From Escherichia coli (GTDB lineage Bacteria > Pseudomonadota > Gammaproteobacteria > Enterobacterales > Enterobacteriaceae): DNA of 64,000 bases. Under the pieces are notes generated by a model, which searched no databases, had not been told where the DNA came from, and worked only from the letters and a program-made list of their open reading frames with translations. Where the stretch lies: NCBI RefSeq assembly GCF_024502345.1, contig NZ_JALDNN010000001.1; one strand, written 5' to 3'. The first letter of the stretch is position 1; each line of letters begins with the position of its first letter. The position numbers and the translations under genes were made by a program. Below, in pieces: positions 39,892 through 44,982 of the stretch.

Positions 39892-40860
<969 letters not shown>

Positions 40861-41281
40861 TTAAAGTGCACAGGAGACGCAGCCTTCAATTTCAGTGCCT
40901 TACAGCGCCATCTGACGCAGGCGAATGTAATAGAGCGTTTTGATACCTTTGCGCCAGGCGTAAATCTGCGCTTTGTTGATATCGCGAGTGGTGGCGGTAT
41001 CGGGGAAAAACAGCGTCAGCGACAAACCCTGATCGACATGGCGAGTCGCTTCCGCGTAGGTGTCGATGATCTTTTCTGCGCCGATTTCGTAAGCATCCTG
41101 ATACAGCGCCAGATTTTCGTTAGTCATAAACGGGGCAGGGTAGTAAACGCGTCCTGTTTTGCCCTCTTTGCGTATCTCTACTTTCGCCACAATCGGATGA
41201 ATACTCGACGTAGCATGTGATGTAGCCCCCTGAAACACCGGACAGTAGCTGTATCTCCAGATAAGAGATAGGCTTGAATAT

Positions 41282-41677
41282 ATGTCTAACACTAACGCCA
41301 ATTTTGAGATGACCGGGATCCTGTTAGGGCAAGAAGTCCGTAAACGTAAAACTCCTCAGGAGAAGATCGCCATTATCCAGCAGACGATGGAGCCGGGTAT
41401 GAATGTCTCCCATGTCGCCCGCCTGCATGGTATCCAGCCCAGCCTGCTGTTTAAGTGGAAGAAGCAATATCAGGAAGGCAGCCTCACCGCCGTTGCGGCT
41501 GGAGAGGAAGTCGTTCCTGCTTCTGAGCTTACTGCTGCTCTGAAGCAGGTCCGGGAGCTTCAGCGCCTTCTGGGCAAGAAAACGATGGAAGTTGAGATCC
41601 TGAAAGAAGCCGTGGAGTACGGTCAGTCGCGAAAATGGATAGCGCACGCGCCCTTGTTGCCAAAGGACGGGGAATAG
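41282..41677 (+). CDS. IS2-group OrfA (InsC-like HTH protein)
   Basis: 131-aa ORF sharing long blocks with IS2 InsC as I recall it ([65 protein letters not shown]). Confidence 0.85.
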
Positions 41678-42516
41678 CCATGGTCAGCCGGACCATGGGC
41701 GTGTCGCGTGCGCAACTGTCACTGCGGATTAACCGTTCTGCCGACTGGCAGGACAGGCGCTGTAACCGGCGTAATGAAGAAGCAGACGCAGAAATACTGT
41801 CGGCTATCCTCAACATTATCAGCGATATGCCGAGTTATGGTTATCGACGCGTGTGGGGCATCCTGCGCAAGCAACGTCGCACAGAGGGACAGCCACCTGT
41901 GAATGCCAAACGGCTTTACAGGATAATGAGCGAGCATAACCTGTTGTTGTTGCATCACAAACCAGAGCGACCGAAGCGTGAACATAAGGGCAAGATAGCG
42001 GTGGCAGAAAGCGATATGCGCTGGTGTTCAGATGGCTTCGAGTTCGGCTGCGACAACGGCGAAAAACTGCGGGTAACGTTCGCGCTGGACTGCTGCGACC
42101 GTGAGGCCATAGACTGGGCAGCAAGCACGGGAGGCTATGACAGTTCGACCGTGCAGGATGTGATGCTGAGGTCGGTGGAAAAGCGCTTCGGCGACAGGTT
42201 GCCCGACACAGCGGTGCAGTGGCTGACGGATAACGGTTCAGCGTATACCGCGTATGAAACGCGGAGGTTCGCGAGAGAGCTGAATCTGGAGCCCTGCACA
42301 ACAGCGGTGAGCAGCCCGCAGAGTAATGGCATGGCCGAACGGTTCGTGAAAACGATGAAAGAAGACTATATCGCGTTCATGCCAAAACCGGATGTGAGAA
42401 CAGCACTGCGAAACCTTGCAGTAGCGTTCACGCATTACAATGAAAACCACCCGCACAGCGCGCTGGGATATCACTCCCCGAGGGAATACCGGCGGCAGCG
42501 GACATCGTTAACTTAA
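41635..42516 (+). CDS. IS2-group OrfB transposase (DDE; InsD-like)
   Basis: 293-aa ORF in the -1 frame overlapping orfA; blocks [48 protein letters not shown] match IS2 InsD as I recall it. Confidence 0.85.
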
Positions 42517-44329
42517 GATACAAAAGCTGTTCGGAGATGGAGGGTCAAGATCATACTCGACGTAGCATGGTTGATATAAGAGATAGAACCGGTTGGCGGC
42601 ACCGCCTGAAGATTCTGGTTGTAAATGCCGTAGCGCATCACGTCGTCGCGCAGTTGCGCCCACATCTCACGGGTAGGTAACGTAATACCGCTGCGGGCAA
42701 ACAGTTCGCCAACTTTCGCCGTTTTCGGCTGCCAGTTACCTTGCAGATATTGGCTAAAATATTCACCACTGGCATAACGTGACTGTTTGAACCCGGCGAA
42801 GGTTTCACCGCGTTCGCGCGCCAGCAACATCGAGGTACGCAGTGCGTGCCAGGTGATGGCATAGAAATAGAGATTGGTGAAATCCAGTGCTTCCGGCGAA
42901 CCATAAGCGATGCCTTCTCGCGCCAGATAGCCGTGTAAATTCATCTGCCCCAGTCCGATGGCGTGTGAGGCGGCATTTCCGGCTTCGATGGACGGCACGC
43001 TGCGGATATGACTCATATCTGACACCGCCGTTAAACCGCGCACGGCAGTCTCTACCGTGCGGGCAAAATCGGGGGAATCCATGGTGTGCGCAATATTCAA
43101 CGAACCTAAATTGCAGGAAATATCATGGCCTGTACGGGCATAGTCGAGATTCTCGTCATACTCTGAGGCGCTGTTAACCTGCAAAATTTCTGAGCAGAGA
43201 TTACTCATATTTATGCGCCCGGCGATAGGGTTAGCACGGTTTACCGTGTCTTCATACATGATGTAGGGATAGCCGGACTCAAACTGGATTTCTGCCAGTC
43301 GCTGGAAGAAATCACGGGCGTTGAGGTATTTTTTGCGAATGCGTTCATCGGCAACCAGTTCGTCATAGTGTTGGCTGATGGCCACATCGGCAAACGGCTT
43401 GCCATAAACTCGCTCTACGTCATAAGGCGAAAACAGCGCCATCTGCGCATTCTCTTTTGCCAGATGGAAAGTGATATCCGGGATCACCACGCCCAGCGAC
43501 AGTGTTTTAATGCGGATTTTCTCGTCGGCATTTTCCCGTTTCGTATCGAGAAAACGCAGAATATCGGGATGATGGGCATGTAAATAGACTGCACCAGCCC
43601 CCTGACGAGCGCCGAGCTGGTTGGCATAGGAAAATGCGTCTTCCAGCATTTTCATCACCGGAATCACGCCAGAAGATTGATTTTCAATACGTTTAATTGG
43701 CGCGCCCGCTTCCCGCAGATTCGACAGCAAAAATGCCACGCCGCCGCCGCGTTTCGACAGTTGCAGTGCGGAATTTACCGCCCGGCCAATCGACTCCATA
43801 TTGTCTTCAATACGCAGCAAAAAACAGGAAACCAGTTCGCCGCGCTGCTGCTTACCACAGTTGAGGAATGTCGGTGTTGCAGGCTGAAAGCGTCCTGACA
43901 GCATCTCATCGGTCAGTTGCGTCGCCAGTGTTTCATCGCCTTGTGCCAGCGTTAGCGCCACCATCGTGACTCGATCGGCAAAATCTTCCAGATAACGCTT
44001 ACCGTCGAATGTCTTCAACGTATAGCTGGTGTAAAACTTCCATGCTCCGAGGAATGTCTGAAAACGAAAACCGCTGGCGTGTGCGTGGGCAAACAGCGTA
44101 ATGACAAAATCGCGAGAGTAGCGGTTGAGGACGTTTTCATCATAGTAACCTTCGTTGACCAGCCAGTTCAGGCGCTGCTGCTGGCTACTGAAGGTCACAC
44201 TGTTCGGACGCACATGTGTCGCCATAAAGGCGTCAACGGCCTGGCGATCTTTATCGAACTGAATGCGACCTGCGCTATCGTAAAGGTTAAGCATCGCATT
44301 CAGCGCGTGGTAATCCATCGTTTCCTGCG

Positions 44330-44740
44330 TCAGGCGTTCTGCGGTTGTCGTTGCCAAAATTCGGTTACTCCTTTACGAACGTTTTCGATATCGCTTTGCG
44401 TACCCATGAGTTCAAAGCGGTACAGCCACGGCACGCCGCATTTCCGGGCTATCACATCTCCGGCGCGGCCATACGCCTCACCAAAGTTGCGATTACCCGA
44501 AGCAATAACGCCGCGAAGCAACGCCCGGTTGTGCTCGTCGTTTAAAAAGCGAATTACCTGTCGTGGCACCGCGCCAGCCGTACCGCCGCCGCCGTAAGAG
44601 GGCACGATCAGGATGTAAGGCTCGTCTACCTGAATCCGTTCCCGCTCATTGAGCGGGATGCGCACCGCGGGCAGACCTAAACGTTCGATAAAACGCTGCG
44701 TGTTTTCGGAGCTGCTGGAGAAGTAGACGAGCTGGCTCAT
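44330..44740 (-). CDS. nrdI: Flavodoxin-like RNR accessory protein NrdI
   Basis: 136-aa [28 protein letters not shown]... Confidence 0.9.
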
Positions 44741-44982
44741 GCACTGGCCGCGTGTGGCGCTGGATGCAGACGGTTAATCATGTCCGGACGGAAACCAGAC
44801 CAGCTAAGATCGCCAGCAATCACTACCGGCAACTGACGAAAGCCCTGAGCACGCAACGCTTCTGCCGCTTCAGGAACGCGATCGACATTAATCATTTCAA
44901 AATCAAAGCCCCGGTTTTCCATCGCCCGTTTGGTGGCGTGGCACTGAACGCAATCGTTACGAGTGTAAATAGTAATGCGCAT
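44737..44982 (-). CDS. nrdH: Glutaredoxin-like protein NrdH
   Basis: 81-aa ORF with CVQC redox motif. Confidence 0.9.

Follow-up and report, generated by a model that had tools for sequence, protein, structure and literature searches.

The question raised by this locus is why an insertion sequence (IS) of the IS3 family should be flanked by a direct repeat several times longer than those elements usually leave behind. The locus lies in a 64,000-nt stretch of the Escherichia coli contig NZ_JALDNN010000001.1 (assembly GCF_024502345.1), hereafter called the window, in which the element, assigned below to ISEcl1, interrupts nrdE, a gene of the operon nrdHIEF for the class Ib ribonucleotide reductase. 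IS3-family elements usually duplicate 3-5 bp of their target, a length that serves as a descriptive hallmark of the family and not as a homology-based definition. A first-pass annotation of the window had described a 17-bp perfect repeat and had proposed a non-canonical insertion or a junction-processing event. The analysis reported here led us to a different reading: ISEcl1 transposed into nrdE in its ordinary way, duplications of 15-16 bp are normal for the clade to which it belongs, probably reflecting a stagger about one helical turn longer than that of IS2, and the NrdEF reductase of this strain should be non-functional. We put the probability of this reading as a whole at roughly 0.85.

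The repeat in nrdE is a 16-bp target-site duplication

The window contains the 17-mer ATACTCGACGTAGCATG at two places and no others, positions 41201-41217 and 42553-42569, as the first-pass annotation had noted; no further match with up to two mismatches was found in the window, and none in 100 shuffles. Both copies lie in the nrdE reading frame and encode HATSSI, which agrees with the HATSS peptide that had been read in the two gene fragments. These minus-strand fragments lie outside the repeats, and one of the products reads ...INHATSS.

To the right of the element, the border of the repeat had to be moved by one base. Independent copies of the element all finish ...GGTCAAGATCA, regardless of the flanking DNA. 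Since the terminal A is common to all of them, position 42553 belongs to the element as its final base and not to the target DNA, and the true duplication is 16 bp, not 17. The A at 41201, which matches the repeat, is a coincidence. The two copies of the duplication are as follows.

41202-41217, no strand: left copy of the 16-bp target-site duplication TACTCGACGTAGCATG, nrdE nt 1789-1804, codons 597-602
42554-42569, no strand: right copy of the 16-bp target-site duplication TACTCGACGTAGCATG

The repeat reported to lie directly outside the IS ends is thus real, but one of its bases belongs to the element; mapping of the ends leaves a duplication of 16 bp, not one of 3-5 bp. To reconstruct the uninterrupted target, the left flank through one repeat copy was joined to the right flank after the second copy, giving an empty-site construct of 817 nt. 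This construct gave one continuous match to intact nrdE/nrdF in 5,419 of the 5,426 complete E. coli genomes (best 99.8%). Because uninterrupted nrdE carries the repeat once in these 5,419 genomes, we concluded that the insertion created the duplication. The earlier reading of the repeat as duplicated target sequence therefore holds, and the same comparison with uninterrupted nrdE ruled out a natural double occurrence of the 17-mer. When a query spanning the nrdE::IS junction was searched against the complete E. coli genomes, no record covered 80% or more of it; the insertion is thus private or rare.

Identity and structure of the element

The specific NCBIfam models that scored best were those of IS2, with 201 bits for TnpA (cut-off 229) and 416 bits for TnpB (cut-off 597). 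Scores that are the best available yet below the cut-off indicate a relative of the IS2 group and not IS2 itself, and OrfB is 64% identical to that of IS2. Against NF033516 ('IS3 family transposase') OrfB scored 199 bits, above the curated cut-off of 160. Precomputed Pfam annotation places PF00665/PF13683 (rve) on close OrfB homologues; in PDB, OrfB weakly matched an integrase core, and no close solved structure for the transposase was found. The first-pass view of a divergent IS2-group member distinct from IS2 is supported by the sub-cut-off scores and the 64% OrfB identity, but it had missed that the element already has a name.

The 90%-identity protein cluster that contains the OrfB of the window has one member that NCBI names 'IS3-like element ISEcl1 family transposase', a fragment that is 100% identical to this OrfB over its 232 amino acids. 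By the ISfinder naming convention, elements share a name at more than 95% nucleotide or 98% protein identity. ISEcl1 was first described in Enterobacter cloacae. Its published length is 1336 bp and it is listed in the IS3 family (PMC5001619 Table 2; PMC8805313); it has also been placed in the IS2 group, with citation of the accession AF342826 (PMC10425158 Table 8). Judged by these sequence comparisons, the element in the window is ISEcl1, a known named IS. Its filing in the IS3 family is kept on the grounds of transposase homology and organisation, despite a duplication longer than the 3-5 bp hallmark.

ISEcl1 is widespread. Copies 100% identical to the body of the element (41218-42552) sit on numerous chromosomes and plasmids of E. 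coli (285 records), the copies on enterobacterial plasmids match at 100% over positions 1-1336, and full-length ISEcl1 is present on 1,557 plasmids, mostly from Klebsiella. For the clade as a whole the count is 371 places in complete E. coli genomes and 3,078 in PLSDB plasmids, and the strain E. coli 873.10 has 15 copies. In the literature ISEcl1 is often cited beside mcr-8, mcr-10 and blaIMI. The phage collection gave no match to the element. A 98.4% variant is located beside IS1 on Klebsiella IncFIB plasmids; this conserved module with IS1 corresponds to what its authors called IS1X1-ISEcl1 (PMC7319535). The name ISEcl2, given to an IS associated with qnrS1, was considered and rejected: the plasmid copy has no qnrS1 beside it, and the primer published for ISEcl2, which may lie outside the IS, is absent. 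Several E. coli and Klebsiella records show ISEcl1 broken into two parts, which together extend over about 2.5 kb and enclose an annotated IS110-family transposase (e.g. NZ_CP171637.1 1441376-1443876); ISEcl1 seems to have been hit more than once by IS110-family elements of one kind.

The homology among independent copies starts at TGATGTAGCCCCC and stops at ...GGGTCAAGATCA whatever the flank. These terminal repeats agree at about 26 of 42 aligned positions and have the TG...CA tips of the IS3 family. The features of the element are listed below.

41218-42553, plus strand: ISEcl1, complete 1336-bp copy (IS3 family, IS2 group) with tips 5'-TG...CA-3', placed by the homology limits and by identity to other copies
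41218-41256, plus strand: left inverted repeat (IRL), imperfect, about 39 bp, tip TGATGTAGCCCCC, placed by end-to-end alignment and conserved among copies
41282-41677, plus strand: orfA, 131 amino acids from the first ATG, helix-turn-helix regulator and N-terminal part of the transposase (NCBIfam IS2 TnpA, 201 bits)
41632-41635, plus strand: A-run of the -1 programmed frameshift from orfA to orfB, giving a 402-amino-acid OrfAB transposase
41635-42516, plus strand: orfB, 293 amino acids, DDE (rve) catalytic part of the transposase (NCBIfam; Pfam on homologues)
42516-42553, plus strand: right inverted repeat (IRR), imperfect, about 38 bp, tip GGGTCAAGATCA, placed by end-to-end alignment

As in the IS3 family, orfA and orfB are two consecutive plus-strand open reading frames that overlap in the -1 frame. 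The annotated 402-amino-acid fusion reads ...QS(R/P)K followed directly by MDS..., which puts the slip on the AAAA at 41632-41635. The RefSeq models of orfA begin at the ATG at 41309, and RefSeq labels the matching copies only as 'IS3 family transposase, programmed frameshift'.

Duplications of 15-16 bp are the rule among independent copies

The first six independent copies fetched were flanked by repeats of 15 or 16 bp with unrelated sequences. The sample was enlarged by scanning viral contigs with the left terminal repeat and one genome per species with a degenerate left end, and it was enlarged further with the contexts of graded protein homologues and with additional plasmid copies. The resulting census comprises 43 complete copies of ISEcl1 and of relatives down to 73% OrfB identity, each insertion site being counted once. 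A 15-bp duplication was observed for 20 copies (two of them with one mismatch), a 16-bp duplication for nine, a 5-bp duplication for one and no duplication for 13; among the 43 copies there was none of 6-14 bp and none longer than 16 bp. The copies come from, among others, E. coli, Shigella, Klebsiella, Citrobacter, Pantoea, Yersinia, a Sodalis endosymbiont and prophage contigs, and some of the assemblies are finished genomes.

As 29 of the 43 independent copies, from many hosts, have duplications of 15-16 bp, the long duplication is canonical for the lineage and not aberrant, contrary to the proposal that a non-canonical insertion or a junction-processing event lay behind the repeat in nrdE. 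A logo of the target sites gave no consensus and only a mild AT-richness, 63% inside the duplications versus 58% in the flanks. With no common target motif, the repeats are not a recognition sequence.

The duplication-free copies comprise a conserved plasmid site that abuts an IS2-type end, decayed Sodalis copies of 1221-1327 bp and a few rearranged sites. We infer that they arose via recombination between copies, nested insertion and decay. The plasmid site is found in many Klebsiella/Raoultella IncFIB plasmids (L007:1637-1680, with the same site in L109-L113), where just one C separates the right end of ISEcl1 from an IS2-type left end (TAGACTGGCCCCCTGAATCTCCAGAC) and no duplication is present. 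This heterologous end-to-end junction suggests an insertion targeted beside a related terminal repeat. The contigs of Candidatus Sodalis endolongispinus (L066-L085) carry at least 20 ISEcl1-like copies with the tip TGATTTAGCCCC; many are shortened to 1221-1327 bp and most are without a duplication, a picture of IS expansion followed by decay.

The long duplication marks a clade within the IS2 group

To see how far the long duplication extends, relatives can be ranked by their similarity to the window element. Copies 97% and 92% identical to it in nucleotide sequence each had 15 bp. Relatives with 76% OrfB identity (ends TGAACCGG...AAGGACA) had 16, 16 and 15 bp at three sites, and those with 75% and 73% OrfB identity each had 15 bp with one mismatch. 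At 67% OrfB identity, a relative likewise 1336 bp long (ends TAGATTAG...AATCCA) had a 5-bp duplication. For IS2 (TAGACTGG...AATCCA), whose duplication is known to be 5 bp and whose left end is known to start with TA, we found 5 bp at two sites. The long duplication is thus the mark of one clade of the IS2 group, whose members reach down to about 73% OrfB identity.

The left end starts with TG in all members of the long-duplication clade and with TA in the 5-bp elements, i.e. the 67% relative and IS2. OrfB is collinear between the long- and 5-bp clades, with 64-67% identity and without gain or loss of a domain; an indel of 1-2 residues is present in the linker before the catalytic core. This small linker indel and five invariant residue differences discriminate the clades among six sequences, which are too few to be interpreted. 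Two further relatives, at 84% and 70% identity (L044:1380-1420 and L051:2735-2760), are hybrid or nested: the start of one lies within an IS2-like end, and the other combines a left end of the ISEcl1 clade with an IS2-type right end (GGAAATATAGGGGCAAATCCA). These hybrids suggest recombination between members of the two clades.

The single 5-bp duplication of the census belongs to a prophage copy (L019:6167-7502) that has 27 mismatches in 1336 bp relative to the window element (98% identity) and carries ATGCC on both sides. Its empty site was found in an independent contig (L096:3162-3192), whose alignment runs along the left flank as far as the junction and continues in the right flank, the two parts overlapping by 5-6 bp. 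With the duplication verified by this empty site, the same kind of element can occasionally duplicate 5 bp in the manner of IS2. At another locus (L024:3279-4640), 23 bp of the right terminal repeat of an ISEcl1 copy (CCGGAAATGGCGGGTCAAGATCA) stand a second time, in tandem, behind the element; next comes GATAC, with which the left flank also finishes. A nested insertion near the right end and subsequent recombination could have produced this arrangement, in which case the outer duplication would be 5 bp long; a search for the empty site of this locus gave no match.

Proposed mechanism and alternative explanations

IS3-family elements such as IS911, IS2 and IS3 transpose by copy-out-paste-in, the intermediate being a circle in which the two ends abut, and their duplication is as long as the stagger of strand transfer. 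ISEcl1 would move in the same way through a circle with abutted ends, whose two 3'-OH ends would attack the target strands at staggered positions, and repair of the stagger would yield the duplication. The stagger in this clade would be about one helical turn longer than that of IS2 (5 + 10.5 = 15.5, seen as 15 or 16). The attacked phosphates would then keep the rotational relation that they have in IS2 while lying about 35 Angstrom further apart, as in a transpososome with more widely spaced active sites, and the rare 5-bp events would be the in-phase alternative. The lengths seen, 5, 15 and 16 bp with nothing between, fit this proposal. A/T-tract targets, which have a shorter helical repeat, would be expected to favour 15 over 16 bp.

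One observation bears on the circle: a metagenome contig (L098:960-2152) reads ...GGGTCAAGATCA-G-TGATGTAGCCCCC..., so that IRR and IRL abut with 1 bp between them, the arrangement that a transposon circle or a tandem dimer would show. The spacer of IS2 minicircles is 1-2 bp. This single observation suggests that the first step is IS2-like and that only the target stagger differs. No other abutted-end junction was found in the viral contigs or the fetched loci, and a published study detected no ISEcl1 circle junction reads (PMC5001619). Taken in its widest form, the proposal is that ISEcl1 and its relatives with at least about 73% OrfB identity form an unrecognised IS3-family subgroup that attacks its target one helical turn wider than IS2 does, with rare 5-bp events; we advance it tentatively, at slightly worse than even odds.

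Several points weigh against the reading of an ordinary ISEcl1 transposition with a stagger one turn longer, or against parts of it. Thirteen of the 43 copies have no duplication, and a test for recombinant flank pairs, in which right ends were under-sampled, found none. The 5-bp alternative has one verified event, the prophage copy, with the GATAC locus as a possible second. The assignment to ISEcl1 was made through a named protein fragment and the published length. Abutted ends were seen once, in a contig that looks chimeric, since AT-rich foreign DNA joins the IS there midway, near position 960. For the helical-phase geometry, the basis is arithmetic and the missing intermediate lengths. 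The expected preference of A/T tracts for the shorter duplication ran in the predicted direction but was non-significant, both for AT content (66% for 15 bp versus 58% for 16 bp; Mann-Whitney p=0.25) and for A/T-tract-like motifs (10 of 20 versus 1 of 9; Fisher p=0.096).

Three other explanations of the repeat were weighed. That it existed in nrdE beforehand, or came from recombination or an assembly artefact instead of transposition, has a negligible probability: nothing was found in its favour, intact nrdE has the sequence once in 5,419 genomes, the 17-mer is confined to the two junctions in the window, and like duplications occur in finished long-read genomes and in many independent assemblies. 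Hardly more credible is a one-off aberrant event, in which a normal 3-5 bp insertion was followed by junction processing, or a non-canonical insertion took place, at this site only. It draws on the 3-5 bp of the customary descriptions of the IS3 family, on the one ISEcl1-type copy that truly has a 5-bp duplication, and on a published table listing ISEcl1 with 'DR 5', DR standing for direct repeat (PMC10425158); but repeats of 15-16 bp were found at 29 independent insertions in unrelated targets and hosts, and they begin exactly at the mapped TG...CA termini.

The third explanation accepts the long stagger but attributes it to strong distortion of the target, by bending or unwinding and possibly with a host DNA-bending protein, which would bring sites 15-16 bp apart onto active sites spaced as in IS2. 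The transposases of the two clades are collinear, 64-67% identical and distinguished by a linker indel of 1-2 residues, so that no major architectural change is apparent; strong target bending is a feature of other DDE transpososomes, and the mild AT-richness of the duplications (63% versus 58% in the flanks) points the same way. Yet no target motif or protein-binding consensus was found, and bending 15 bp until the ends meet appears sterically demanding. We consider this explanation unlikely, though clearly less so than the other two, and prefer ordinary ISEcl1 transposition with more widely spaced attack.

Consequences for nrdE and its operon

The gene order nrdH-nrdI-nrdE-nrdF beside proVWX follows the RefSeq annotation of the matching region of strain FDAARGOS_944, which was used as the reference. 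The genes of the operon in the window are as follows.

39892-40851, minus strand: nrdF, intact, 319 amino acids, 0 amino acid differences from the reference
40861-41217, minus strand: nrdE 3' fragment, nt 1789-2145, with the conserved YY pair and the C-terminal CVSC tail, carrying E702*
42554-44357, minus strand: nrdE 5' fragment, nt 1-1804, which reads 13 codons into the element and then stops
44330-44740, minus strand: nrdI, intact, protein identical to the reference
44737-44982, minus strand: nrdH, intact, protein identical to the reference

After removal of the element and one repeat copy, nrdE is colinear with that of FDAARGOS_944, and 26 of 2145 nt differ. The insertion lies at codons 597-602 of 714, and NrdE loses its last approximately 113 residues. 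The first-pass annotation had described nrdE as disrupted and nrdH, nrdI and nrdF as intact; this is borne out, with all three proteins identical to those of the reference strain. A second, independent lesion had been overlooked: codon 702 is changed from GAA to TAA (E702*; 40900-40902, minus strand), so that the 13 C-terminal residues EGTEIEGCVSCAL, with the cysteine pair of the CVSC tail, are lost. There are also two missense changes relative to FDAARGOS_944, S75N and C517G.

Class I reductases need the YY pair and the C-terminal cysteines for radical transfer and re-reduction. In the window the YY pair, within ...TLYYIRL..., lies on the C-terminal fragment. From the insertion together with E702*, the class Ib reductase NrdEF should be non-functional, and the earlier prediction that the system is inactive was reasonable. 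As nrdF is downstream of the insertion in the operon, polarity may affect its expression. The second lesion suggests that nrdE was, or became, dispensable in this lineage. For this genome, the Mn-dependent backup reductase NrdEF is predicted to be doubly dead, a state that points to relaxed selection on the reductase in the lineage.

Published duplication lengths and their importance

The length of the duplication is treated as a fixed signature of an IS family, and annotation tools and curators use it to delimit elements and to recognise genuine insertions. For ISEcl1, a widespread and clinically relevant element, the duplications are three times the IS3-family norm. Searches that expect 3-5 bp would miss the true ISEcl1 boundaries or misread the copies as having no direct repeat. 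In the literature, the generic IS2-group value 'DR 5' is tabulated for ISEcl1 (PMC10425158), and one ISEcl1 insertion is mentioned in passing as 'flanked by two 14-bp DRs' (PMC10913469). The latter probably describes the same kind of duplication, with the element ends placed one base differently. Literature searches on IS3-family elements with 15- or 16-bp repeats, on IS2-group duplications and with the terminal-repeat sequence returned nothing relevant, and the papers on ISEc48 and Tn6306 state no repeat lengths. The clade-wide trait of 15-16 bp looks undescribed in the searchable literature; ISfinder, which may catalogue it, was outside the search.

If the long stagger is a true property of the clade, the collinear relative with 67% identity that makes 5 bp forms with it a natural matched pair for finding what sets the duplication length of a DDE transposase. 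Two collinear transposases, about 65% identical, that give 5 versus 15-16 bp with nothing between would be a tractable system for how a transpososome measures the distance of strand transfer.

Comparison with known systems

From ISEcl1 as published the window element has no detectable sequence difference; only the described length of the duplication differs, 5 or 14 bp versus the 15-16 bp found here. IS2 resembles it in organisation, with orfA and orfB joined by -1 frameshifting at an A-run, in its imperfect terminal repeats, which measure about 40 bp and share a GCCCC core, in 64% OrfB identity and in providing the best-scoring NCBIfam models; the single abutted-end junction, with its 1-bp spacer, would be a further resemblance. 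It differs in its 5-bp duplication and TA left end, as against 15-16 bp and TG in ISEcl1, and ISEcl1 is below the IS2 cut-offs of NCBIfam.

A parallel under another name is found in ISEc48-like elements of E. coli with 73-77% OrfB identity (ends TGAACCGG...AAGGACA or TGAGCTGG...AAGAACA). These are differently named elements with diverged terminal repeats, but they share the length of about 1333-1336 bp, the TG...CA ends and duplications of 15-16 bp at five independent sites. NCBI gives the name ISEc48 to a protein of 77% identity, and the name is tied to the measured copies by similarity only.

Longer duplications are familiar elsewhere: IS4 duplicates 11-13 bp, and IS1634/IS1549 tens to hundreds of bp. 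These duplications also exceed one helical turn, but they are made by transposase families and in architectures unrelated to those of ISEcl1. In the families with very long duplications the length varies widely, whereas in ISEcl1 it is tightly fixed at 15-16 bp.

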